This document shows, piece by piece, positions 1 through 54,026 of a stretch of DNA of 64,000 nt; within the stretch, counting starts at the first letter, position 1; every line of letters starts with the position of its first letter. A program made the position numbers and the translations under genes. The DNA lies in contig OZ024742.1 in the NCBI GenBank assembly GCA_964016885.1, forward strand, positions 8,680,001 to 8,744,000, in the 5' to 3' direction. This stretch comes from Eledone cirrhosa. Taxonomy: Eukaryota. The notes below the pieces were generated by a model, which was not told where the DNA came from, made no database searches, and saw only the letters and a program-made list of their open reading frames with translations.

Positions 1-3000
1 CACTATCATCACCACCACCACCACTATCAACATCATCACCACCACTATCAACATCACCACCACCACTATCATCACCACCACCACTATCATCACCACCACC
101 ACCACTATCATCATCACCACCACCACTATCAACATCAACACCACCACTATCATCATCACCACCACCACTATCAACATCATCACCACCACTATCACCATCA
201 CCACCACCAATATCATCATCACCACCACCACTATCAACATCACCACCACCACTATCAACATCACCACCACCACTAACAACATCACCACCACCACCACTAT
301 CAACATCACCACCACCACTATCATCATCACCACCACCACTATCATCATCACCACCACCACTATCAACATCACCACCACCACTATCAACATCACCACCACC
401 ACTATCAACATCACCACCACCACTATCACCATCACCACCACCACTATCATCATCACCACCACCACTATCAACATCACCACCACCACTATCAACATCACCA
501 CCACCACTATCAACATCACCACCACCACTATCAACATCACCACCACCACTATCAACATCACCACCACCACTATCAACATCACCAACACGACTATCAACAT
601 CACCACCACCACTATCAACACCGACACCACCACTATCATCACAACCACCACTATCATCATCACCACCACTATCATCATCACCACCACCACTATCAACACC
701 ACCACCACCACTGTCATCACCACCACCACCACTATCAACATCACCACCACTATCAACATCACCACCACCACTATCATCATCACCACCACCACTATCATCA
801 TCACCAGCACCACTATCAACATCATCACCATCACTATCATCATCACCACCACCACTATCATCATCACCACCACCACTGTCATCATCACCACCACCACTAT
901 CAACATCATCACCATCACTATCATCATCACCACCACCACTATCATCATCATCACCACCACTATCAACATCACCACCACCACTATCATCATCACCACCACC
1001 ACTATCATCATCATCACCACCACTATCAACATCACCACCACCACTATCATCATCACCACCACCACTATCATCATCACCACCACCACTATCATCATCACCA
1101 CCACCACTATCATCATCACCAGCACCACTATCAACATCATCACCATCACTATCATCATCACCACCACCACTATCATCATCACCACCACCACTATCATCAT
1201 CACCACCACCACTATCAACACCACCACCACCATTATCAACATCACCACCACCACTATCATCATCACCACCACCACTATCAACACCACCACCACCATTATC
1301 AACATCACCACCACCACTATCATCATCACCACCACCACTATCATCATCACCACCACCACTATCATCATCACCACCACCACTATCAACATCACCACCACCA
1401 CTATCAACATCACCACCACCACTATCATCATCACCACCACCACTATCATCATCACCACCACTATCAACATCACCACCACCACTATCATCATCACCACCAC
1501 CACTATCATCATCACCACCACCACTATCAACACCACCACCACCATTATCAACATCACCACCACCACTATCATCATCACCACCACCACTATCAACACCACC
1601 ACCACCATTATCAACATCACCACCACCACTATCATCATCACCACCACCACTATCATCATCACCACCACCACTATCATCATCACCACCACCACTATCAACA
1701 TCACCACCACCACTATCAACATCACCACCACCACTATCATCATCACCACCACCACTATCATCATCACCACCACTATCAACATCACCACCACCACTATCAT
1801 CATCACCACCACCACTATCATCATCACCACCACTATCAACATCACCACCACCACTATCATCATCACCACCACTATCAACATCACCACCACTATCAACATC
1901 ACCACCACCACTATCATCATCACCAACACCACTATCATCATCACCACCACCACTATCAACATCACCACCACCACTATCATCATCATCACCACCACCACCA
2001 TTATCAACATCACCACCACCACTATCAACATCACCACCACCACTATCATCACCACCACCACCACTATCATCATCACCACCACCACCATCATCATCACCAC
2101 CACCACCATCATCATCATCACCACCACCACCATTATCAACATCACCACCACCACTATCAACATCACCACCACCACTATCATCACCACCACCACCACTATC
2201 ATCACCACCACCACCAATATCAACATCACCACCACCACTATCAACATCACCACCACCACTATCATCATCACCAACACCACTATCATCATCACCACCACCA
2301 CTATCAACATCACCACCACCACTATCATCATCATCACCACCACCACCATTATCAACATCACCACCACCACTATCAACATCACCACCACCACTATCATCAC
2401 CACCACCACCACTATCATCATCACCACCACCACTATCATCATCACCACCACCACCATCATCATCATCACCACCACCACCATTATCAACATCACCACCACC
2501 ACTATCAACATCACCACCACCACTATCATCACCACCACCACCACTATCATCACCACCACCACCAATATCAACATCACCACCACCACTATCAACATCACCA
2601 CAACCACTATCATCATCACCACCACCACTATCATCATCACCACCACCACTATCATCACCACCACCACCACTATCATCACCACCACCACCACTATCAACAT
2701 CACCACCACCACTATCAACATCACCACCACCACTATCAACATCACCACCACCACTATCATCATCACCACCACCACTATCATCATCACCACCACCACTATC
2801 ATCATCATCACCACCACCACCATTATCAACATCACCACCACCACTATCAACATCACCACCACCACTATCATCATCACCACCACCACTATCATCACCACCA
2901 CCACCACTATCATCACCACCACCACCACTATCATCACCACCACCACCACTATCAACATCACCACCACCACTATCAACATCACCACCACCACTATCAACAT

Positions 3001-6000
3001 CACCACCACCACTATCATCACCACCACCACCACTATCAACATCACCACCACCACTATCATCATCACCACCACCACTATCATCATCACCACCACCACTATC
3101 AACATCACCACCACCACTATCAACATCACCACCACCACTATCAACATCACCACCACAACTATCAACATCACCACCACCACTATCAACATCACCACCACCA
3201 CTATCATCATCATCATCACCACCACCACTATCATCATCACCACCACCACTATCAACATCACCACCACCACTATCAACATCACCACCACCACTATCATCAT
3301 CATCATCACCACCACCACTATCAACATCACCACCACCACTATCATCATCACCACCACCACTATCAACATCACCACCACCACTATCAACATCACCACCACC
3401 ACTATCATCATCACCACCACCACTATCATCATCACCACCACCACTATCATCATCATCATCACCACCACCACTATCAACATCACCACCACCACTATCAACA
3501 TCACCACCACCACTATCATCATCATCATCACCACCACCACTATCATCATCACCACCACCACTATCAACATCACCACCACCACTATCAACATCACCACCAC
3601 CACTATCATCATCATCATCACCACCACCACTATCAACATCACCACCACCACTATCAACATCACCACCACCACTATCATCATCACCACCACCACTATCAAC
3701 ATCACCACCACCACTATCAACATCACCACCACCACTATCATCATCACCACCACCACTATCAACATCACCACCACCACTATCATCATCATCACCACCACCA
3801 CCACTATCATCATCACCACCACCACTATCAACATCACCACCACCACTATCAACATCACCACCACCACTATCATCATCACCACCACCACTATCAACATCAC
3901 CACCACCACTATCAACATCACCACCACCACTATCAACATCACCACCACCACTATCAACATCACCACCACCACTATCATCATCACCACCACCACTATCATC
4001 ACCACCACCACCACTATCATCACCACCACCACCACTATCATCATCACCACCACCACTATCATCACCACCACCACCACTATCAACATCACCACCACCACTA
4101 TCATCATCACCAGCACCACTATCAACATCACCACCACCACTATCATCATCACCACCACCACTATCAACATCACCACCACCACTATCATCATCACCACCAC
4201 CACTATCAACATCACCACCACCACTATCATCATCACCACCACCACTATCAACATCACCACCACCACTATCAACATCACCACCACCACTATCAACATCACC
4301 ACCACCACTATCAACATCACCACCACCACTATCAACATCACCACCACCACTATCATCATCACCACCACCACTATCATCACCACCACCACCACTATCATCA
4401 CCACCACCACCACTATCATCATCACCACCACCACTATCATCACCACCACCACCACTATCAACATCACCACCACCACTATCATCACCACCACCACCACTAT
4501 CAACATCACCACCACCACTATCATCACCACCACCACCACTATCAACATCACCACCACCACTATCATCACCACCACCACCACTATCAACATCACCACCACC
4601 ACTATCATCATCACCACCACCACTATCATCACCACCACCACCACTATCATCACCACCACCACCACTATCATCACCACCACCACCACTATCATCACCACCA
4701 CCACTATCATCACCACCACCACTATCATCATCACCACCACCACTATCAGCACCACCACCACCACTATCATCACCACCACCACCACTATCTTCATCATCAC
4801 CACCACTATCAACATCACCACCACAACCACTATCATCATCACCACCACCACTATCATCACCACCACCACCACTATCATCACCACCAACACCACTATCATC
4901 ACCACCACCACCACTATCAACATCATCACCACCACTATCAACATCACCACCACCACTATCATCATCACCACCACCACTATCATCACCACCACCACTATCA
5001 TCATCACCACCACCACTATCAACATCACCACCACCACTATCAACATCACCACCACCACTATCATCATCACCACCACCACTATCATCATCACCACCACCAC
5101 TATCATCACCACCAACACCACTATCATCACCACCACCACCACTATCATCATCACCACCACCACTATCATCACCACCACCACTATCATCACCACCACCACC
5201 ACTATCATCACCACCACCACCACTATCATCACCACCACCACCACTATCATCATCACCACCACCACTATCATCACCACCACCACTATCATCATCACCACCA
5301 CCACTATTATCACCACCACCACTATCATCACCACCACCACCACTATCATCACCACCAACACCACTATCATCACCACCACCACCACTATCAACATCATCAC
5401 CACCACTATCAACATCACCACCACCACTATCATCACCACCACCACTATCATCACCACCACCACCACTATCATCATCACCACCACCACTATCAACATCAAC
5501 ACCACCACTATCATCATCACCACCACCACTATCAACATCATCACCACCACTATCACCATCACCACCACCAATATCATCATCACCACCACCACTATCAACA
5601 TCACCACCACCACTATCAACATCACCACCACCACTAACAACATCACCACCACCACCACTATCAACATCACCACCACCACTATCATCATCACCACCACCAC
5701 TATCATCATCACCACCACCACTATCAACATCACCACCACCACTATCAACATCACCACCACCACTATCAACATCACCACCACCACTATCACCATCACCACC
5801 ACCACTATCATCATCACCACCACCACTATCAACATCACCACCACCACTATCATCATCACCACCACCACTATCATCATCATCACCACCACTATCAACATCA
5901 CCACCACCACTATCAACATCACCACCACCACCACTATCAACATCACCACCACCACTATCAACATCACCACCACCACTATCAACATCACCACCACCACTAT

Positions 6001-6540
6001 CAACATCACCACCACCACTATTAACATCACCACCACTATCAACATCACCACCACCACTATCAACATCATCAGCACCACCACTATCATCACCACCACTATC
6101 AACATCACCACCACCACTATTAACACCACCACCACTATCAACATCACCACCACCACTATCATCACCACCACCACTATCAACATCACCACCACCACTATCA
6201 ACATCACCACCACCGCCACTATCAACATCACCACCACCACTATCATCACCATCACCACCACTATCATCACCACCACCACCACTATCATCACCACCACCAC
6301 TATCAACATCACCACCACCACCACTATCAACATCACCACCACCACTATCATCACCATCACCACCACTATCATCACCACCACCACCACTATCATCACCACC
6401 ACCACTATCATCAGCACCACCACCACTATCAACATCACCACCACCACTATCATCACCACCACCACCACTATCATCACCACCACCACTATCATCACCACCA
6501 CCACCACTATCAACATCATCACCACCAACATCATCATCAG
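1..6540. repeat. Degenerate ~21-bp minisatellite built from CAC/CAT/CAA/TAT triplets (consensus caccaccaccactatcaacat); runs off the left edge
   Basis: Continuous triplet-phased repeat, units mostly 18-24 bp. Confidence 0.97.
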
Positions 6541-8245: not shown

Positions 8246-8807
8246 AAATGTATGTGCCCATCAGTGTGCAATGCATGTGTGCGTTTGTGTATGTGTGTGT
8301 GTCGGTACGTTTATATCTATAGACATCAAAAGGTATGCAAATGTGTGTATATATGTGTTGCACCATAGAACATGTGTGTTTACGTATGTCATTGTGTTTA
8401 TATGTGAGTAGAGATGTGTGCTGATGTAGGTATGTATGTTGACGTGTGTATGTTGTGGGTTCGTCTTAGGGAGAAGTGTTTAGATGGGGTCCGTATTTGT
8501 TAATAAAGTAAGATTCCTTGCTGATGCGCTGGGTGTGGGTGGCATTATCTTTAAATTTGTAGAGGGGAAAGATTCTGAAGTTATATATATGCGTGTCAAT
8601 ACATATATATATGCAGAGGTTATATTTTTCAGGGTATGTCAATATTTATTTATAAAACAAATCTGTATTGTATTGTATCTGATGAAAGCGCACCATGATT
8701 TGCCTTGGTGGCCCTTGAAATATGTATAATAAAATAAATATGGTTTTATAAATATAGTTTAATAAAATAAATATGGTTTTATAAATATAGTTTCCATTTT
8801 TTAATAT

Positions 8808-13130: not shown

Positions 13131-13550
13131 CCGAGACAACGAGCACCAGAATAACTGTACCGAATACTAATATAGAGACCCATAGGAACTATAGAAAATC
13201 CAGAGATAGAAATTACTTATGGTTCAATTCAATATTCAACTCCTCTATAAAAAAACAAACTACCTTCTACAATCTTTAAGCTAATTTACAAACACTTCCC
13301 TAAACTACACAAATACCATAGAATCTTTAACTGAAAAACTATCAAACTATCTTACTCTACTGCAGCCAACATAGAATCAGACATACATAAAATCAACTAC
13401 GTAAGAATCTCTAAAGAAAATAACCTACCAACATACACCATAACACCAAATACAAAACGCAAACACATAACAACATCACAACCACACGCACATCAGGGCG
13501 CATCACAACAAAACATTAACAGGCCTAAATCACAACCCACCCAGAACAAC

Positions 13551-13990
13551 ATGCAAAACCCCAACGGAGAACCGGCACACAGGAAGGCCTCCACCTGTAA
13601 CTGCCCACTACAAAATAGATGCCTGGATTCAAGTATGGTGTACGTGTGTACTATAAATTCAGGCAACTTAACATGGCACTACATAGGTTCCACGGTTGGG
13701 GAGTTAAAAAAAAGATGCTATGTTTACAGACACTCCATGAAGAACCGTAGACTAGAGAACTCTACAACGCTGGCCAACAAAATCTGGCAGCTTAAGAACA
13801 CAAACCAGGAATATAGGATTAGCTGGTCAAAATTATCGGGAGCAAGGGCCTACAACAATGGAATGTCCCACTGCGACTTTGCAATATAGAGCTATTCCAT
13901 ATTTTAAAGTTCGATAAGATGCTGCTTAACAGCAACATAGAAAGATCAATTTTCTGTAGGCAGAAAGCAGCTACCAAGTTCACACATTTC
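13551..13990 (+). pseudogene. GIY-YIG endonuclease domain of the Penelope-like element (disrupted)
   Basis: Cys motif CNCPLQNRC, VY...YIG motif, conserved R/H and IW..K..I.W; reading frame breaks near 13880-13889. Confidence 0.85.
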
Positions 13991-14593
13991 AAACCAGCAT
14001 GATTCGACCCAGCAATCCCAAAATTAGAACTGAACCACCCGGATTTTAACGTACGGAATACATACCACCACACTGTTATTAGCTGTCAACTGACCGACTG
14101 ATCACTAGATGATAAATCTCCAAACCTTTCTTTCACTCTCTCTCCTTAAAGCAACATCAACCCCATTAAGATATGACAATCAGCATGCTAAACATTTACC
14201 CCACACATATCAAACCCCGCTTCCCCGTCCTTAGCCCTACCCCTTATGTCTCATCCTCGTATCTCTCACTTAATTGTTAATTTATTGTTTTTACTTTTAT
14301 CTGTCATTTGTTACTACCTCATATTCTCTACACGTATGTATGTATCTAATGTTGCTTTTCCTGTTAGTACTACCTTCACCCCCACATCCTTATACAGACA
14401 CTTACTCACCACCACTATTATCAACTATCGTGCTCTGTACTTATATACTTTTACTTATTTCTTATTTCTTTATATTTTTTTACTTGTTACATCTTGTAAC
14501 TTCTTTAACTCTTTATCATTATATTTTATTATTGATGTTATTGTTTTGATTCTACGCTGTATCTCTATATATACCATTGCCATATGTGAGTTC

Positions 14594-14712
14594 TCAAGTA
14601 TTCTGAGGATTTGATCAGAGACACACACTGTATTTGAGTTCGAGTGACGCAACTTCGAGTGATTAGCGGCCTTTAGACTCACCTGATCAATGAAACAATT
14701 GTTAATACCTGA
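14594..14712 (+). ncRNA. Type I hammerhead ribozyme with a long stem II insertion
   Basis: tcaagtatt CTGAGGA t TTGATCAG ..~64 nt.. CTGATCAA t GAAAC aatt GTT aatacctga. Stem I pairs 8 of 9, stem II 8 bp, palindromic stem III AACAATTGTT. Confidence 0.75.
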
Positions 14713-14924
14713 AATAAAACCCTTGTTGTACAGCCGACCATGTTATTCTTCAATCTTTCACTATTATTACTCCAAGTATAACCTGCATAGGAATTCTCGC
14801 GATCTCGCTGCCTAACTAAGGAAACCTCTTGTTGAGTCAAACAACGCCGTACATTAAAACTATCCACGACACAGAGTACTCACAACCTCTAACTGGTTTA
14901 ACTATAGCGATAACTTATTATCCC

Positions 14925-14955
<31 letters not shown>

Positions 14956-14996
14956 CATATATCAATATATCTATATCTATATATATATATATATAT

Positions 14997-15172
<176 letters not shown>

Positions 15173-15286: not shown

Positions 15287-15320
<34 letters not shown>

Positions 15321-15323
<3 letters not shown>

Positions 15324-15750
15324 TAATGAAAAAGAACAAAGGAACTATTATGACATTACAAGTTTATTGCCGACAGCCGTTTCGTCAGAACATATGGTGG
15401 GACTTTTCAAGGCATATAACATGTGATTGAAAGTTCATTATTTACATCAACGTTTCACTCAAGATTAGCAGTTTCAAATTGTGGTATACATCAGCAGCTC
15501 CGCTTGTATATTTGGGGTCTATATTCTAAGGGGGCTCTTTTATATAAGTTGTCGGATTTGTAAAAGGGATGGGTTATGGGGAGTTAAGAGAATTTGAAGA
15601 GGGCCTAAGAGTCAGGGATTGAAGTAAATAATGAACTTACAATCACATGTTATATGCCTTGAAAAGTCCAACCATATGGTCGGACGAAACGGCTGTCGGT
15701 AATAACTTGTTGTAATGTCATAATAGTTCCTTTGTTCTTTTTCATTAATA
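15321..15750. repeat. Inverted repeat with ~130-bp arms and ~170-bp spacer, one HHR per arm
   Basis: 15321-15450 is the reverse complement of 15619-15750. Confidence 0.9.
15649..15706 (+). ncRNA. Type I hammerhead, U3-A8 core variant (inverted copy at 15363-15420, minus strand)
   Basis: gttatatgcc TTGAAAA GTCC aaccatatggtc GGAC GAAAC ggct GTC ggtaataac; predicted cleavage after 15697. Confidence 0.75.
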
Positions 15751-16117
15751 TTTCTACTCTGCTTATACGCATAGAGCTTAACTAGCTACCGTCGCATATT
15801 TGGTAGGTCAGGCGTGATCATCGCGATTCACATACGACCTACCATACATGTTCCTTTGTCAGTGTTGAACAAACGAGCAACGGTAGTTGCTAGACACTAC
15901 GGCTTAATACGGGATGTTTGTTTACAAACACACCGAGCATCATTATAATAAATGTTCGGTGAATCCATACGTGCATATATATATGTGTGCATGTATGTAT
16001 ATATATATATACATACTACTGTACGTCGGTAAACATATATGTATGTACGTGTACATACTTATATTTAAGTAACAGCCGTACTAAGAGTGGGAAATGAAAT
16101 ATCGTTTCATTTTTTCC

Positions 16118-20551: not shown

Positions 20552-20687
20552 ATGATTTCTGATGATTTCTGCCGAATGAAACAGTTCTAGTCCCGTAGAA
20601 GCCTTTCTATATTAAATATTTATATTCTGCTTTGTATTGAGTACCTTACTAACTGTGGTTACCCCCGATTGAACCCGGGATAAACTT
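20552..20687 (+). mobile_element. Dispersed repeat with a hammerhead-like core; inverted relative at 37262-37432
   Basis: CTGATGA tttc tgcc gaat GAAAC. The downstream ~105 bp match the reverse complement of 37262-37365. Confidence 0.6.
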
Positions 20688-34265: not shown

Positions 34266-37262
34266 GAACAATAACAACAATAACAACAATGACAACAATA
34301 ACAACAATGACAAAAATGACAACAGTAAGAACAATAACAACAATGACAACAATGACAACAATAACAACAATAACAACAATGACAGCAATAACAACTGTAA
34401 GAACAATAACAACAATGACAACAATGACAACAGTAAGAACAATAAAAACAATAACAACAATGACAACAATAACAACAATAACAACAATGACAACAATAAC
34501 AACAGTAAGAACAATAACAACACTAACAACAATAACAACAATAACAACAGTAAGAACAATAACAACAATAACAACAATGACAGCAATAACAACTGTAAGA
34601 ACAATAACAACAATGACAACAATGACAACAGTAAGAACAATAAAAACAATAACAACAATGACAACAATAACAACAATAACAACAATGACAACAATAACAA
34701 CAGTAAGAACAATAACAACAATAACAACAATGACAGCAATAACAACTGTAAGAACAATAACAACAATGACAACAATGACAACAGTAAGAACAATAAAAAA
34801 CAATAACAACAGTAAGAACAATAACAACAATAACAACAGTGACAAAAATGACAACAATGACAACAATGACAACAATAACAACTGTAAGAACAATAACAAC
34901 AATGACAACAATGACAACAGTAAGAACAATAAAAACAATAACAACAGTAAGAACAATAACAACAATAACAACAATGACAACAATGACAACAATAACAACA
35001 ATAACAACAGTAAGAACAATAACAACAATAACAACAGTAAGAACAATAACAACAATAACAACAATAACAACATTAAGAACAATGACAACAATAACAACAA
35101 TAACAACAATGACAACAATAACAACAATGACAACAATAACAACAATAACAACAATGACAGCAATAACAACTGTAAGAACAATAACAACAATAACAACAGT
35201 AAGAACAATAACAACAATGACAACAATAACAACAATAACAACAATAACAACAGTAAGAACAATAACAACAATAACAACAATAACAACAATAACAACAGTA
35301 AGAACAATAACAACAATGACAACAGTAAGAACAATGACAACACTAACAACAATAACAACAATAACAACAGTAAGAACAATAACAACAATGACAACAATAA
35401 CAACAATAACAACAATAACAACAGTAAGAACAATAACAACAATAACAACAATAACAACAATAACAACAGTAAGAACAATAACAACAATGACAACAGTAAG
35501 AACAATGACAACACTAACAACAATAACAACAATAACAACAGTAAGAACAATAACAACACTAACAACAATAACAACAATGACAACAGTAAGAACAATAACA
35601 ACAATGACAACAGTAAGAACAATGACAACACTAACAACAATAACAACAATGACAACAGTAAGAACAATAACAACACTAACAACAATAACAACAATAACAA
35701 CAGTAAGAACAATAACAACAATGACAACAATAACAACAATAACAACAATAACAACAGTAAGAACAATAACAACAATAACAACAATAACAACAATAACAAC
35801 AGTAAGAACAATAACAACAATGACAACAGTAAGAACAATGACAACACTAACAACAATAACAACAATAACAACAGTAAGAACAATAACAACAATGACAACA
35901 GTAAGAACAATAACAACAATGACAACAGTAAGAACAATGACAACACTAACAACAATAACAACAATGACAACAGTAAGAACAATAACAACACTAACAACAA
36001 TAACAACAATAACAACAGTAAGAACAATAACAACAATGACAACAGTAAGAACAATGACAACACTAACAACAATAACAACAATAACAACAGTAAGAACAAT
36101 AACAACAATAACAACAATAACAACATTAAGAACAATAACAACACTAACAACAATAACAACAATAACAACAGTAAGAACAATAACAACAATAACAACAATA
36201 ACAACATTAAGAACAATAACAACACTAACAACAATAACAACAATAACAACAGTAAGAACAATAACAACAATGACAACAGTAAGAACAATGACAACACTAA
36301 CAACAATAACAACAATAACAACAGTAAGAACAATAACAACACTAACAACAATAACAACAATAACAACAGTAAGAACAATAACAACAATGACAACAGTAAG
36401 AACAATGACAACACTAACAACAATAACAACAATAACAACAGTAAGAACAATAACAACACTAACAACAATAACAACAATGACAACAGTAAGAACAATAACA
36501 ACAATGACAACAGTAAGAACAATGACAACACTAACAACAATAACAACAATGACAACAATGACAACAATAACAACAATGACAACACTAACAACAATAACAA
36601 CAATGACAACAGTAAGAACAATAACAACAATAACAACAATAACAACAATAACAACAGTAAGAACAATAACAACAATGACAACAGTAAGAACAATGACAAC
36701 ACTAACAACAATAACAACAATGACAACAGTAAGAACAATGACAACACTAACAACAATAACAACAATGACAACAGTAAGAACAATGACAACACTAACAACA
36801 ATAACAACAATGACAACAGTAAGAACAATAACAACACTAACAACAATAACAACAATGACAACAGTAAGAACAATAACAACAATAACAACAATAACAACAA
36901 TAACAACATTAAGAACAATAACAACAATAACAACAATAACAACAGTAAGAACAATAACAACAATAACAAAAATGACAACAGTAAGAACAATAACAACAAT
37001 AACAACAATAACAACAATAACAACAATAACAACAGTAAGAACAATAACAACAACAATAACAACAATAATAACAACAACAACAATGACAACAATAACAACA
37101 ACAAGAACAATGGCAATAATAACAACAACAACAACAATGACAACAATAACAACAGCAACAACAATGACAACAATAACAACAACAACAACAACAATAACAA
37201 AAATAATAACAATAAGAACAACAACAACAAAAGTAACAACAGTAACAACAATAACAATAACA
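34266..37262. repeat. 9-bp-unit array (aacaacaat with gac/aag/agt/act variants)
   Basis: Directly visible; it produces the spurious 800-1000 aa ORFs. Confidence 0.96.
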
Positions 37263-37337
37263 AGTTTATCCCAGGTTCAAACGGGGGTAACCACAGTAAG
37301 TAAAGTACTCAATACAAAGCAGAGTATAAATATTTAA

Positions 37338-37432
37338 TATAGAAAGACTTCTACAGGACTAGAAATGTTTCATTCCGGAGAAATCTTCAGAAATCATACA
37401 GGAAGTTCTAGCCCCGTAGAAACCTTTCTATA
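37338..37432 (-). ncRNA. Hairpin enclosing a hammerhead-like core, probably defective
   Basis: Minus strand: CTGAAGA tttc tccg gaat GAAAC inside a ~25-bp imperfect stem. No proximal stem I is visible. Confidence 0.4.
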
Positions 37433-44100: not shown

Positions 44101-44105
<5 letters not shown>

Positions 44106-47100
44106 GATTTAATGCTCTGAGATAGCGATATATATGTGAAGACAAACATAGAATATTCGAAAATATTCTGTATGTTTATAATAAACATTTTGAAGACCTA
44201 ATCGCTATAGAATAGAATACGTCACGTATTACAATTTGAGATTCTCGATAAAAGCAAGGGAAGTAACCTACGCGTTTCATTCTTATTAGAAATCATCAGG
44301 ATTACATATCCAATGCTTTTATCGAGAATGACAGGAGCTAGAGACTTATAGAATACTTAGCTGTGTACATGAACTGGTTTGAAAGAGCAGTAGTCGGTCC
44401 GGCAGAAATTAGAATTTGGATTTAATGCTCTGAAATAGCGATATATATGTGAAGACAAACATAGAATATTCGAAAATATTCTGTATGTTTATAATAAACA
44501 TTTTGAAGACCTAATCGCTATAGAATAGAATACGTCACGTATTATAATTTGAGATTCTCGATAAAAGCAAGGGAAGTAACCTACGCGTTTCATTCTTATT
44601 AGAAATCATCAGGATTACATACCCAATGCTTTTATCGAGAATGACACAGCTAGAGACTTATAGAATACTTAGCTGTGTACATGAACTGGTTTGAAAGAGC
44701 AGTAGTCGGTCCGGCAGAAATTAGAATTTGGATTTAATGCTCTGAAATAGCGATATATATGTGAAGACAAACATAGAATATTCGAAAATATTCTGTATGT
44801 TTATAATAAACATTTTGAAGACCTAATCGCTATAGAATAGAATACGTCACGTATTATAATTTGAGATTCTCGATAAAAGCAAGGGAAGTAACCTACGCGT
44901 TTCATTCTTATTAGAAATCATCAGGATTACATACCCAATGCTTTTATCGAGAATGACACAGCTAGAGACTTATAGAATACTTAGCTGTGTACATGAACTG
45001 GTTTGAAAGAGCAGTAGTCGGTCCGGCAGAAATTAGAATTTGGATTTAATGCTCTGAAATAGCGATATATATGTGAAGACAAACATAGAATATTCGAAAA
45101 TATTCTGTATGTTTATAATAAACATTTTGAAGACCTAATCGCTATAGAATAGAATACGTCACGTATTACAATTTGAGATTCTCGATAAAAGCAAGGGAAG
45201 TAACCTACGCGTTTCATTCTTATTAGAAATCATCAGGATTACATATCCAATGCTTTTATCGAGAATGACACAGCTAGAGACTTATAGAATACTTAGCTGT
45301 GTACATGAACTGGTTTGAAAGAGCAGTAGTCGGTCCGGCAGAAATTAGAATTTGGATTTAATGCTCTGAAATAGCGATATATATGTGAAGACAAACATAG
45401 AATATTCGAAAATATTTTGTATGTTTATAATAAACATTTTGAAGACCTAATCGCTATAGAATAGAATACGTCACGTATTACAATTTGAGATTCTCGATAA
45501 AAGCAAGGGAAGTAACCTACGCGTTTCATTCTTATTAGAAATCATCAGGATTACATATCCAATGCTTTTATCGAGAATGACAGGAGCTAGAGACTTATAG
45601 AATACTTAGCTGTGTACATGAACTGGTTTGAAAGAGCAGTAGTCGGTCCGGCAGAAATTAGAATTTGGATTTAATGCCCTGAAATAGCGATATATATGTG
45701 AAGACAAACATAGAATATTCGAAAATATTCTGTATGTTTATAATAAACATTTTGAAGACCTAATCGCTATAGAATAGAATACGTCACGTATTACAATTTG
45801 AGATTCTCGATAAAAGCAAGGGAAGTAATCTACGCGTTTCATTCTTATTAGAAATCATCAGGATTACATATCCAATGCTTTTATCGAGAATGACACAGCT
45901 AGAGACTTATAGAATACTTAGCTGTGTACATGAACTGGTTTGAAAGAGCAGTAGTCGGTCCGGCAGAAATTAGAATTTGGATTTAATGCTCTGAAATAGC
46001 GATATATATGTGAAGACAAACATAGAATATTCGAAAATATTCTGTATGTTTATAATAAACATTTTGAAGACCTAATCGCTATAGAATAGAATACGTCACG
46101 TATTACAATTTGAGATTCTCGATAAAAGCAAGGGAAGTAACCTACGCGTTTCATTCTTATTAGAAATCATCAGGATTACATATCCAATGCTTTTATCGAG
46201 AATGACACAGCTAGAGACTTATAGAATACTTAGCTGTGTACATGAACTGGTTTGAAAGAGCAGTAGTCGGTCCGGCAGAAATTAGAATTTGGATTTAATG
46301 CTCTGAAATAGCGATATATATGTGAAGACAAACATAGAATATTCGAAAATATTCTGTATGTTTATAATAAACATTTTGAAGACCTAATCGCTATAGAATA
46401 GAATACGTCACGTATTACAATTTGAGATTCTCGATAAAAGCAAGGGAAGTAACCTACGCGTTTCATTCTTATTAGAAATCATCAGGATTACATATCCAAT
46501 GCTTTTATCGAGAATGACACAGCTAGAGACTTATAGAATACTTAGCTGTGTACATGAACTGGTCTGAAAGAGCAGTAGTCGTTCCGGCAGAAATTAGAAT
46601 TTGGATTTAATGCTCTGAAATAGCGATATATATGTGAAGACAAACATAGAATATTCGAAAATATTCTGTATGTTTATAATAAACATTTTGAAGACCTAAT
46701 CGCTATAGAATAGAATACGTCACGTATTACAATTTGAGATTCTCGATAAAAGCAAGGGAAGTAACCTACGCGTTTCATTCTTATTAGAAATCATCAGGAT
46801 TACATATCCAATGCTTTTATCGAGAATGACACAGCTAGAGACTTATAGAATACTTAGCTGTGTACATGAACTGGTTTGAAAGAGCAGTAGTCGGTCCGGC
46901 AGAAATTAGAATTTGGATTTAATGCTCTGAAATAGCGATATATATGTGAAGACAAACATAGAATATTCGAAAATATTCTGTATGTTTATAATAAACATTT
47001 TGAAGACCTAATCGCTATAGAATAGAATACGTCACGTATTACAATTTGAGATTCTCGATAAAAGCAAGGGAAGTAACCTACGCGTTTCATTCTTATTAGA

Positions 47101-49350
47101 AATCATCAGGATTACATATCCAATGCTTTTATCGAGAATGACACAGCTAGAGACTTATAGAGTACTTAGCTGTGTACATGAACTGGTTTGAAAGAGCAGT
47201 AGTCGGTCCGGCAGAAATTAGAATTTGGATTTAATGCTCTGAAATAGCGATATATATGTGAAGACAAACATAGAATATTCGAAAATATTCTGTATGTTTA
47301 TAATAAACATTTTGAAGACCTAATCGCTATAGAATAGAATACGTCACGTATTACAATTTGAGATTCTCGATAAAAGCAAGGGAAGTAACCTACGCGTTTC
47401 ATTCTTATTAGAAATCATCAGGATTACATATCCAATGCTTTTATCGAGAATGACACAGCTAGAAACTTATAGAATACTTAGCTGTGTACATGAACTGGTT
47501 TGAAAGAGCAGTAGTCGGTCCGGCAGAAATTAGAATTTGGATTTAATGCTCTGAAATAGCGATATATATGTGAAGACAAACATAGAATATTCGAAAATAT
47601 TCTGTATGTTTATAATAAACATTTTGAAGACCTAATCGCTATAGAATAGAATACGTCACGTATTACAATTTGAGATTCTCGATAAAAGCAAGGGAAGTAA
47701 CCTACGCGTTTCATTCTTATTAGAAATCATCAGGATTACATATCCAATGCTTTTATCGAGAATGACACAGCTAGAGACTTATAGAATACTTAGCTGTGTA
47801 CATGAACTGGTTTGAAAGAGCAGTAGTCGGTCCGGCAGAAATTAGAATTTGGATTTAATGCTCTGAAATAGCGATATATATGTGAAGACAAACATAGAAT
47901 ATTCGAAAATATTCTGTATGTTTATAATAAACATTTTGAAGACCTAATCGCTATAGAATAGAATACGTCACGTATTACAATTTGAGATTCTCGATAAAAG
48001 CAAGGGAAGTAACCTACGCGTTTCATTCTTATTAGAAATCATCAGGATTACATATCCAATGCTTTTATCGAGAATGACACAGCTAGAGACTTATAGAGTA
48101 CTTAGCTGTGTACATGAACTGGTTTGAAAGAGCAGTAGTCGGTCCGGCAGAAATTAGAATTTGGATTTAATGCTCTGAAATAGCGATATATATGTGAAGA
48201 CAAACATAGAATATTCGAAAATATTCTGTATGTTTATAATAAACATTTTGAAGACCTAATCGCTATAGAATAGAATACGTCACGTATTACAATTTGAGAT
48301 TCTCGATAAAAGCAAGGGAAGTAACCTACGCGTTTCATTCTTATTAGAAATCATCAGGATTACATATCCAATGCTTTTATCGAGAATGACACAGCTAGAA
48401 ACTTATAGAATACTTAGCTGTGTACATGAACTGGTTTGAAAGAGCAGTAGTCGGTCCGGCAGAAATTAGAATTTGGATTTAATGCTCTGAAATAGCGATA
48501 TATATGTGAAGACAAACATAGAATATTCGAAAATATTCTGTATGTTTATAATAAACATTTTGAAGACCTAATCGCTATAGAATAGAATACGTCACGTATT
48601 ACAATTTGAGATTCTCGATAAAAGCAAGGGAAGTAACCTACGCGTTTCATTCTTATTAGAAATCATCAGGATTACATATCCAATGCTTTTATCGAGAATG
48701 ACACAGCTAGAGACTTATAGAATACTTAGCTGTGTACATGAACTGGTCTGAAAGAGCAGTAGTCGTTCCGGCAGAAATTAGAATTTGGATTTAATGCTCT
48801 GAAATAGCGATATATATGTGAAGACAAACATAGAATATTCGAAAATATTCTGTATGTTTATAATAAACATTTTGAAGACCTAATCGCTATAGAATAGAAT
48901 ACGTCACGTATTACAATTTGAGATTCTCGATAAAAGCAAGGGAAGTAACCTACGCGTTTCATTCTTATTAGAAATCATCAGGATTACATATCCAATGCTT
49001 TTATCGAGAATGACACAGCTAGAGACTTATAGAATACTTAGCTGTGTACATGAACTGGTTTGAAAGAGCAGTAGTCGGTCCGGCAGAAATTAGAATTTGG
49101 ATTTAATGCTCTGAAATAGCGATATATATGTGAAGACAAACATAGAATATTCGAAAATATTCTGTATGTTTATAATAAACATTTTGAAGACCTAATCGCT
49201 ATAGAATAGAATACGTCACGTATTACAATTTGAGATTCTCGATAAAAGCAAGGGAAGTAACCTACGCGTTTCATTCTTATTAGAAATCATCAGGATTACA
49301 TATCCAATGCTTTTATCGAGAATGACACAGCTAGAGACTTATAGAATACT
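44101..49350 (-). repeat. 312-bp tandem array, 17 units (last one partial), each encoding a type I hammerhead ribozyme
   Basis: Unit starts: 44101, 44414, 44726, 45038, 45350, 45663, 45975, 46287, 46599, 46911, 47223, 47535, 47847, 48159, 48471, 48783, 49095. Confidence 0.97.
44241..44329 (-). ncRNA. Type I hammerhead ribozyme in unit 1, repeated in all 17 units
   Basis: Minus strand: attctcgataaaagca ttggatat gtaatc CTGATGA t ttct aata agaa t GAAAC gc GTA ggttac ttccct tgcttttatcgagaat. Predicted cleavage between 44269 and 44268. Confidence 0.85.
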
Positions 49351-49582
49351 TTGGACTTGACTCGCTCTTCCTCACTTTTCGTTGCTTCACCATCCTTGTT
49401 TGTTTACTTTGTCGCTGTTCCCTTTATTTATATGTCCCAACGACTTTCTTTAGCCGTTGCTTGCACCAACCGGAGGTATATGGTCTTTAAAGCGAAGAAA
49501 TACCGATGATGGTTGGAAGATCACTGTTTAAGGACCACTTTATTCATATGTAACCCATTTGCAACTCCGCAGCACGTTTATT

Positions 49583-51716: not shown

Positions 51717-54026
51717 CTAGACATACCACTGAGTTTACCAACACCACCCGCCACTAACAGACTATATCTAGACATACCACTGAGTTTACCAACACCACCC
51801 GCCACTAACAGACTATATCTAGACATACCACCACACCGAGTTTACCAACACCACCCCGCCACTAACAGACTATATCTAGACATACCACCACACCGAGTTT
51901 ACCAACACCACCCGCCACTAACAGACTATATCTAGACATACCACTGAGTTTACTAACACCACCCGCCACTAACAGACTATATCTAGACATACCACTGAGT
52001 TTACCAACACCACCCGCCACTAACAGACTATATCTAGACATACCACCACACCGAGTTTACCAACACCACCCGCCACTAACAGACTATATCTAGACATACC
52101 ACCACACCGAGTTTACCAACACCACCCGCCACTAACAGATTATATCTAGACATACCACCACACCGAGTTTACCAACACCACCCCGCCACTAACATACTAT
52201 AACTAGACATACCACCACACCGAGTTTACCAACACCACCCCGCCATTAACGGACTATATCTAGACATACCACCACACCGAGTTTACCAACACCACCCCGC
52301 CATTACCAGACTATATCTAGACATACCACCACACCGAGTTTACCAACACCACCCCGCCATTACCAGACTATATCTAGACATACCACCATACCGAGTTTAC
52401 CAACACCACCCCGCCATTACCAGACTATATCTAGACATACCACCACACCGAGTTTACCAACACCACCCCGCCATTACCAGACTATATCTAGACATACCAC
52501 CACACCGAGTTTACCAACACCACCCCGCCATTACCAGACTATATCTAGACATACCACCACACCGAGTTTACCAACACCACCCCGCCATTACCAGACTATA
52601 TCTAGACATACCACCACACCGAGTTTACCAACACCACCCCGCCATTACCAGACTATATATAGACATACCACCATACCGAGTTTACCAACACCACCCCGCC
52701 ACTAACAGACTATAACTAGACATACCACCACACCGAGTTTACCAACACCACCCCGCCATTACCAGACTATATCTAGACATACCACCACACCGAGTTTACC
52801 AACACCACCCCACCATTACCAGACTATATCTAGACATACCACCACACCGAGTTTACCAACACCACCCCGCCACTAACATACTATAACTAGACATACCACC
52901 ACACCGAGTTTACCAACACCACCCCGCCACTAACAGACTATATCTAGACATACCACCACACCGAGTTTACCAACACCACCCCGCCACTAACATACTATAA
53001 CTAGACATACCACCACACCGAGTTTACCAACACCACCCCGCCACTAACAGACTATATCTAGACATACCACCACACCGAGTTTACCAACACCACCCCGCCA
53101 CTAACAGACTATAACTAAACATACCACCACACCAAGTTTACCAACACCACCCCGCCATTACCAGACTATATCTAGACATACCACCACACTGAGTTTACCA
53201 ACACCACCCCGCCACTAACAGACTATAACTAAACATACCACCACACCAAGTTTACCAACACCACCCCGCCATTACCAGACTATATCTAGACATACCACCA
53301 CACCAAGTTTACCAACACCACCCCGCCATTACCAGACTATATCTAGACATACCACCACACCGAGTTTACCAACACCACCCCGCCACTAACAAACTATATA
53401 TAGACATACCACCATACCGAGTTTACCAACACCACCCCGCCACTAACAGACTATAACTAGACATACCACCACACCGAGTTTACCAACACCACCCCGCCAT
53501 TACCAGACTATATCTAGACATACCACCACACCGAGTTTACCAACACCACCCCGCCATTACCAGACTATATCTAGACATACCACCACACCGAGTTTACCAA
53601 CACCACCCCGCCACTAACAGACTATAACTAGACATACCACCACACCGAGTTTACCAACACCACCCCACCATTACCAGACTATATCTGGACATACCACCAC
53701 ACCGAGTTTACCAACACCACCCCGCCACTAACATACTATAACTAGACATACCACCACACCGAGTTTACCAACACCACCCCGCCACTAACAAACTATATCT
53801 AGACATACCACCACACCGAGTTTACCAACACCACCCCGCCACTAACATACTATAACTAGACATACCACCACACCGAGTTTACCAACACCACCCCGCCACT
53901 AACAAACTATATCTAGACATACCACCATACCGAGTTTACCAACACGACCCCGCCACTAACAAACTATAACTAGACATACCACCACACCGAGTTTACCAAC
54001 ACCACCCCGCCATTACCAGACTATAC
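51717..54026. repeat. 57-bp minisatellite, ~41 copies (51-56-bp variants at the left end)
   Basis: Unit ctagacataccaccacaccgagtttaccaacaccaccccgccattaccagactatat. Confidence 0.96.

Follow-up and report, generated by a model that had tools for sequence, protein, structure and literature searches.

The hammerhead motif at 14598–14708 of the window, a 64,000-nucleotide stretch of the Eledone cirrhosa genome (assembly GCA_964016885.1, contig OZ024742.1, positions 8,680,001 to 8,744,000 of the forward strand), is very probably the pLTR hammerhead of a broken Hydra-clade Penelope-like retroelement (PLE). On this reading, the U·U at the base of its stem II is a variant already in the literature that is likely to be tolerated and occurs commonly in Hydra-clade elements, and it does not mark a tie between the element and the 312-bp tandem array of the same window. 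The element belongs to a new family of a described clade and carries a described ribozyme variant, and as found it matters little in that neither the clade nor the variant is new.

Anatomy of the hammerhead motif

The motif CTGAGGA-U-[8-bp stem II]-U-GAAA and the AATAAA behind it, both reported in the original prediction, are present, with U14610 opposite U14691 in place of the canonical G10.1-C11.1 pair, which is usual but not obligatory. The features of the motif, all on the plus strand, are as follows.

14598–14708, plus: type I hammerhead motif, core CUGANGA ... GAAA ... UH in three-way-junction order
14598–14602 (GTATT) with 14704–14708 (AATAC), plus: stem I, 5 bp
14603–14609, plus: core CTGAGGA
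14610, plus: U10.1, U in 32 of 32 aligned rows
14611–14690, plus: stem II of 8 bp (14611–14618 with 14683–14690), with a 64-nt loop that folds further
14691, plus: U11.1, U in 32 of 32 aligned rows
14692–14695, plus: GAAA of the hammerhead
14694–14703, plus: stem III region, a self-complementary 10-nt palindrome (palindrome test; duplex -8.2 kcal/mol)
14703/14704, plus: predicted cut, after GUU
14713–14718, plus: AATAAA, located 3' of the predicted cut at a distance of 10 nt and identical in all 32 rows

Arm II extends over the 82 nt that separate A9 from G12, and GUU occupies the position of the cleavage triplet. In the monomer, pairing is possible over 5 bp in helix I, 8 bp in helix II and 2–3 bp in helix III. 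Across 31 distinct family rows, 98% of the cells in helix I and 96% of those in helix III are paired. Using a descriptor in which positions 10.1/11.1 were left free, we found seven hammerheads in the window outside the array, as compared to one match each in 3 of 20 dinucleotide shuffles. The palindrome at 14694–14703 is likely to act as a dimer helix, as judged from its modeled duplex. The AATAAA was not accepted as a poly(A) signal, given its position 3' of the predicted cut and the GATAAA that a sister family has in its place.

The mismatch is shared by the family. In an alignment of 32 rows, assembled from 30 of the 40 scored copies together with a diverged relative from L110 and one copy from L143, positions 10.1, 11.1 and 17 are invariantly U, while N7 is G or T. 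Because these residues do not vary across the 32 rows, the alignment identifies U·U as a property of the window PLE family and not as decay of the window copy.

The host element is a truncated Hydra-clade PLE

The motif sits near the 3' end of an element that can be delineated through longer copies elsewhere in the genome.

13134–14924, plus: 5'-truncated Hydra-clade PLE copy (88% identity over 13134–14764 to the longer copies L032 and L034; 14599–14927 aligns to the 5' pLTR of L034)
13134–14002, plus: disrupted C-terminal ORF remnant comprising the linker and the GIY-YIG endonuclease (three pieces in two frames by tblastn with the L032 open frame)
14003–14597, plus: 3' UTR/pLTR upstream of the ribozyme, shared with family copies and without a family ORF
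14765–14924, plus: tail, consisting of 5' UTR sequence of the element itself and bounded by the two fixed ends of the family, the first at 14764 and the second at about 14924
14925–15172, no strand: (TA)n target microsatellite

The ORF remnant, which closes with a stop codon at 14000–14002, is interrupted by one internal stop and by two frameshifts, and a deletion of 18 nt has removed six residues from within the CxCX5C linker. The hammerhead was described as directly downstream of the GIY-YIG remnant; it is downstream, but about 600 nt past the stop codon. In L034, the sequence of the tail runs on into the start of the ORF. With a single hammerhead and a broken ORF, the window copy is likely dead.

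A search of the 3.0-Gb genome with 14560–14760 as query yielded 3121 first-look candidates, 40 of which were scored, and among these the full-length matches other than the window itself are 91–96% identical. The unit of the family is about 3.4 kb. The layout expected of a PLE pLTR hammerhead is borne out by L034, in which two hammerheads (3055 and 6465), 3410 nt apart, flank the ORF in the usual pLTR arrangement. The order of the pieces in L034–L036 and L039 places the reverse transcriptase (RT) ahead of a C-terminal GIY-YIG within a single ORF. The longer copies encode RWK, DKT, an RT core with YRDD and the CxCX5C linker, followed by a GIY-YIG lacking the internal CC pair and then by CxxC and CxH around E and N, with no CCHH. 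Pfam detected the RT domain as RVT_1 with an E-value of 8.5e-6, below the curated cut-off, and returned nothing significant for the endonuclease of either the window fragment or the longer-copy ORF; the GIY-YIG is read from its motifs. RWK/DKT, the CxCX5C linker, a GIY-YIG without the internal CC, CxxC and CxH are diagnostic of the Hydra clade (Craig et al. 2021, PMC8557442), and it is from these motifs, set against that definition, that the family is assigned to the clade.

Insertion ends and a proposed life cycle

Copies of the window family end at two fixed places, +61 and about +221–223 from the cut, mostly in (TA)n. Comparable ends, at +58 to +61 and +192 to +223, characterize three Hydra families whatever their 10.1/11.1 state, while those of the array family lie at +141 and +162 to +172 and those of the 20559 family at +23 and +98. 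Ends were counted as distinct flanks among the fetched loci, with TA runs blurring positions by a few bases, and two Neptune-type families were left out of the comparison because of TA runs in their reference stretches. Frangieh et al. (2024, PMC11167929) demonstrated reverse transcription from two internal sites in a Poseidon element, and, if this can be transferred to the window family, its two fixed ends fit such a process.

By analogy with related elements, transcription through the tandem pLTRs of an intact copy would generate an RNA with two hammerheads, both of which would cut after GUU. The palindromic stem III would probably join them as a dimer for this step, and an RNA of unit length, about 3.4 kb, would be set free. 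(TA)n would then be nicked by the RT-endonuclease of the element, and reverse transcription may begin at two internal sites, approximately 61 and 221 nt past the cut, leaving the two fixed ends.

U·U among PLE families and across the genome

Pairing endonuclease remnants with downstream hammerheads gave ten ORF-linked Hydra-type families. U·U is present in three (the window family, L139/L112 with a U3-A8 core, and L150) and G-C in four (L176, L117/L154, L101 and L172, the latter two with weak stems), with A-U, C·A and A·A, the last with a weak stem I, accounting for one family each. All three ORF-linked families of Neptune type, a label based on a CxxC linker and internal cysteines, combine a bulged base with G-C, and none has U·U. 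The anticipated association of U·U hammerheads with PLE ORFs was found, in three ORF-linked families and so far only in Hydra elements, which provides a weak hint at the level of the clade. Within the genome's own families, U·U does not behave as a stable lineage mark: an endonuclease tree of 14 fragments requires three changes, at least two of them forced by well-supported branches, and a single U·U clade is weakly rejected (p-AU 0.04) with fragments that are short and partly broken, one U·U row forming a long branch and three rows being short. The 82-nt arm II of the window hammerhead is a rarer feature than U·U, with 75–99 nt separating A9 and G12 in four Hydra-type families (window 14610–14691; L139:1631; L175:8455; L143, minus strand, 5475).

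We also sampled 80 evenly spaced 10-kb stretches, 800 kb in all, which gave 73 descriptor matches as compared to 0–1 in each of 10 shuffles; nine matches from an AT-rich minisatellite (L151) were dropped, leaving 64. The states at 10.1/11.1 were U·U in 21, A-U in 16, G-C in 14 (seven with the bulged base), C·A in seven, G-U and U-A in two each, and A·A and A·C in one each. U·U is the commonest state in the sampled 800 kb (21/64, or 19/62 without two rows that share their 3' half with another row), and a stricter first scan returned it in 12 of 37. Grouped by eye, the sample holds about 22 families, roughly nine of which have U·U. One family occurs in three states (U·U, C·A and G-C; L176, L101 and L124), a second in two (U·U and G-C; L106 and L123), and the L154 array, 93% identical to the array of the window, has A-U in all five hammerheads found. 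The position appears weakly constrained in these ribozymes and, with U·U, A-U, C·A, G-C, G-U and A·A all occurring, U·U was likely gained or lost several times. G10.1-C11.1 is a minority state here (14/64), so that searches requiring it undercount hammerheads in this genome. The near-matched natural pairs, namely the arrays with U·U and A-U at 93% identity and the U·U/C·A/G-C families, offer an easy measure of how 10.1/11.1 affects cleavage.

U·U in published hammerheads

The claim that U·U is lineage-specific finds no support among published hammerheads. By our count from File S2 of Craig et al. 2021 (PMC8557442), U·U is present in 14 of 25 Hydra-clade families, 11 of them from Hydra (two rows identical), two from sea cucumber and one from a copepod, and GUU in 10 of the 25. 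These U·U motifs are listed there as canonical, and the searched passages of the main text contained no remark on U·U. The mismatch is likewise found at the base of helix II in the axolotl, where some 60,000 retrozyme hammerheads carry it (Cervera and de la Pena 2020, PMC7229834), and a natural U10.1-U11.1 has been reported that cleaves more than any other mispair at that position (Perreault et al. 2011, PMC3088659). Cervera and de la Pena (2014, PMC4209133) describe strong conservation of G10.1-C11.1 in minimal PLE hammerheads, which makes U·U atypical outside the Hydra clade. In the texts searched, U·U was not found to be named as a Hydra-clade trait.

Other hammerheads and repeats in the window

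The stretch 15320–15751 contains an inverted hammerhead pair (15410 minus, 15659 plus) with a compensated U3-A8 core and G10.1-C11.1, and corresponds to the 3' end of the L176-type Hydra family. At L176:662–5892 (G000:C4:320.00 Mb, minus strand) lies an apparently full-length Hydra-type element in which 5230 nt separate the hammerheads and the 3' UTR measures 2.4 kb; copies are up to 99–100% identical over the 301-nt L176 stretch searched, indicating a young family. Further hammerhead-like motifs from several other families were noted at 8679, 11619, 16282, 16741/17321, 17800/18609, 21199 and 37675, including two inverted pairs and, among the 10.1/11.1 states, A-U, G-C, G-U and A·C. A family that occurs with U·U, C·A and G-C (L176:1–300; L131, minus strand, 4545; window about 15840–15980) carries the octamer ATGCAAAT about 70–85 nt upstream of the core, which might be an snRNA-type promoter. 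Long tandem arrays with strong strand skew occupy 1–6539 (21 bp), 34267–37257 (9/27 bp) and 51727–54025 (57 bp).

Descriptors and database profiles

Rfam returned 0 matches for the whole window at the gathering score, and in E-value mode over 8000–46000 no hammerhead family was among the matches listed (best 150 of 227). The expectation that standard descriptors would miss the U·U type holds in part, as the filter of Perreault et al. rejects a 10.1-11.1 mispair (PMC3088659) and Rfam finds none; however, the general descriptor of Craig et al. recovered U·U motifs (PMC8557442), and Rfam also missed G-C hammerheads of the window, such as those at 15659 and 16282, so that the Rfam misses are not to be put down to U·U alone. 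Long arms together with a short stem III are the likelier cause, and the long arm II is likely to be one reason for misses in databases.

The 312-bp array, the 20559 family and a possible Hydra ancestry of U·U retrozymes

Two further families in the window carry the mismatch.

44101–49351, minus: 312-bp tandem array, 16.8 units with 17 U·U hammerheads; non-LTR retrozyme-type family, outside the PLE
20552–20687, plus: short member of a third family, whose hammerhead has U·U, GUA and a 4-bp stem III
37262–37397, minus: second window copy of the 20559 family, 92% identical, core 37390–37368

These copies agree with the reported presence of U·U in the array, in all 17 hammerheads, and in the pair designated 20559/37338, both members of which have U opposite U; the second core, however, lies at 37390–37368 and not at 37338. 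The array units display the features by which non-LTR retrozymes are recognized, being tandem, about 300 bp long, low in GC, each equipped with a type I hammerhead and dispersed in the genome. With 561 candidates and 96–100% identity among the matches listed, often in head-to-head arms, the family is by its sequence a dispersed, young and typical non-LTR retrozyme. Fourteen array-family loci outside the window, all near-identical top matches, have U·U only. Within 1.19 Mb of fetched loci, the matches listed for the array unit comprised other retrozyme-like repeats and the 20559 family (28 hammerhead nt, E 0.001), and none of the matches listed was ORF-linked. The 20559 family, with 3710 candidates in the genome, shares 26 of 28 hammerhead nt with the array unit, and no parent ORF was found for it: in 30 longer copies, the upstream sequence reaches a TA/TG microsatellite after about 400 nt and diverges beyond it. 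Members of this family (20552–20687; L072–L100) very often form a short palindrome in which head-to-head copies meet just upstream of the core.

Distant relatives of the array unit at L080, L109, L110, L144 and L179 have in common a stretch of some 150 nt, at about 73% likeness, but carry a different hammerhead, which suggests a wider retrozyme superfamily at the sequence level. The array unit is also present in contigs of four runs whose library type is not on record, which establishes presence only; in one of these (X1), likewise of unrecorded library type, the unit at 44420–44731 reaches a summed depth of several hundred thousand, and it occurs at low depth in runs of three other organisms. 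A circular 342-nt contig from run X4 was not accepted as circular RNA, as a tandem array gives the same result.

The dependence of retrozymes on PLEs has been proposed (PMC7229834) and, for Xenopus, supported (bioRxiv 10.64898/2026.07.22.740005). The alternative that fares best against our preferred reading places the link at the level of the clade: U·U retrozymes, including the array, would have taken their hammerhead from some Hydra-clade pLTR and be moved by Hydra enzymes, not those of the window family. We consider this possible but unlikely. The contrast between three of ten Hydra and none of three Neptune-type families points in this direction but is too small for significance, and it is accompanied by the 14 of 25 published Hydra families with U·U (PMC8557442), by the homology of Xenopus retrozymes to pLTRs (bioRxiv 10.64898/2026.07.22.740005) and by L080, which at about 67% likeness to the array unit retains U·U with a different stem II. 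Insertion of the array family at (TA)n, often as head-to-head arms, is also consistent with Hydra enzymes, yet (TA)n targeting has been reported for Neptune and Naiad elements as well (PMC8557442), and the array ends differ from those of the three Hydra families. The axolotl, moreover, has a U·U retrozyme, whereas Hydra-clade elements were present in 0 of 31 sampled vertebrate genomes (bioRxiv 10.64898/2026.07.22.740005), and the array unit lacked an ORF-linked match among those listed from the fetched loci. If true, the link would help show which PLE enzymes move invertebrate retrozymes, a question listed as not investigated in the same preprint.

More doubtful still is a stronger version, in which an unpaired 10.1·11.1 (mostly U·U, but C·A and A·A as well), frequently combined with GUU and an arm II of great length, would be a selected Hydra-clade design that slows cutting, so that longer-than-unit read-through templates survive, and that marks U·U retrozymes as Hydra descendants and passengers. 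It would, if true, place invertebrate retrozymes in a named PLE clade for the first time in the literature searched. That relaxed pairing at 10.1/11.1 is simply a Hydra-clade trait, and as such a hint of Hydra ancestry for U·U retrozymes, we likewise hold to be tentative at best.

Folding and cleavage potential

The predicted hammerhead fold of the monomer (-15.2 kcal/mol) lies 3.2 kcal/mol above the minimum-energy fold (-18.4 kcal/mol), and the region is no more stable than its shuffles (z 0.38). Covariation in the family alignment is limited to one pair with two-sided change, equalled in 59 of 500 shuffles, the copies being too alike. Poor folding and stability as a monomer, together with the palindromic stem III, suggest that the family's hammerhead would cleave as a dimer. 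Lunse, Weinberg and Breaker reportedly have a paper on dimeric PLE hammerheads. Cervera and de la Pena (2014, PMC4209133) proposed dimer cleavage for PLE hammerheads, and in the axolotl U·U retrozyme cleavage of the monomer came to 22% in 1 h and that of the dimer was much better (PMC7229834). Among the sequencing runs listed for the window family, none is recorded as RNA.

The window motif departs from the canonical hammerhead in three respects at once, U·U, GUU and the 82-nt arm II. GUU is cut more slowly than GUC. A literature search on GUU cleavage rates gave nothing relevant, with no passage on GUU found in PMC1636495. The three departures raise the prospect of an inactive motif merely carried along as pLTR sequence, as does U17, which could pair with A14 within the 10-nt palindrome. 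Minimal PLE hammerheads cleave poorly in vitro (PMC4209133), and eight of nine Xenopus retrozyme dimers showed no cleavage (bioRxiv 10.64898/2026.07.22.740005). Such a vestige is nevertheless improbable: Hydra sister families that are distant in the endonuclease tree preserve core, stems and spacing despite different letters, up to and including a compensated U3-A8 core, and the axolotl retrozyme cleaves with the same U·U (PMC7229834).

The array and the window PLE as partners

An autonomous element and its non-autonomous partner would be expected to share pLTR sequence or insertion ends, and for the window PLE and the array the shared pLTR sequence is absent and the ends are different. BLAST at word size 7 revealed no similarity above chance beyond the core between the array unit and the PLE (best E 1.0), and a match of 10 nt linking the tail of the PLE with the array unit (E 3.5) was put down to chance and is absent from L034. 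The original prediction, in which U·U is a lineage-specific subtype and the window Penelope family the autonomous partner of the array, is very unlikely and largely refuted, as the occurrence of U·U in all three window families and the (TA)n ends of both PLE and array are outweighed by U·U in three other phyla (PMC8557442) and in a salamander (PMC7229834), by differences in stem II length, stem III, triplet (GUA in the array, GUU in the PLE) and end positions, and by the switch to A-U in the 93%-identical sister of the array. About a third of the sampled hammerheads have U·U, so its presence in both carries little information.

Comparison with known systems

Our preferred reading, a pLTR hammerhead with a tolerated U·U, can be placed among four described systems. 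Minimal PLE hammerheads (PMC4209133) resemble the window motif in their pLTR location, long helix II, short helix I, palindromic 15.2-16.2 and proposed cleavage as dimers, but have a bulged base after A9 and the conserved G10.1-C11.1, as do the Neptune-type families of this genome. The axolotl HHR_Amex2 (PMC7229834) is likewise of type I with U·U at the base of helix II, and is the closest parallel to the 312-bp array; it sits, however, in a non-coding 350-bp repeat and has a short helix II, whereas the window motif stands behind an ORF and has a long arm. The variant of Perreault et al. 2011 (PMC3088659) has the same mismatch, the best-tolerated mispair, but is rare in that set and the commonest state here. 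The Hydra-clade PLEs of Craig et al. 2021 (PMC8557442) share with the window family the C-terminal GIY-YIG, RWK, DKT, CxCX5C, CxxC and CxH, the (TA)n targets and the hammerhead at the 3' end, in many families with U·U below stem II or with GUU, and differ in a unit below 3 kb as compared to 3.4 kb and in an A9-G12 distance of about 10–26 nt in the File S2 rows as compared to 82 nt in the window.
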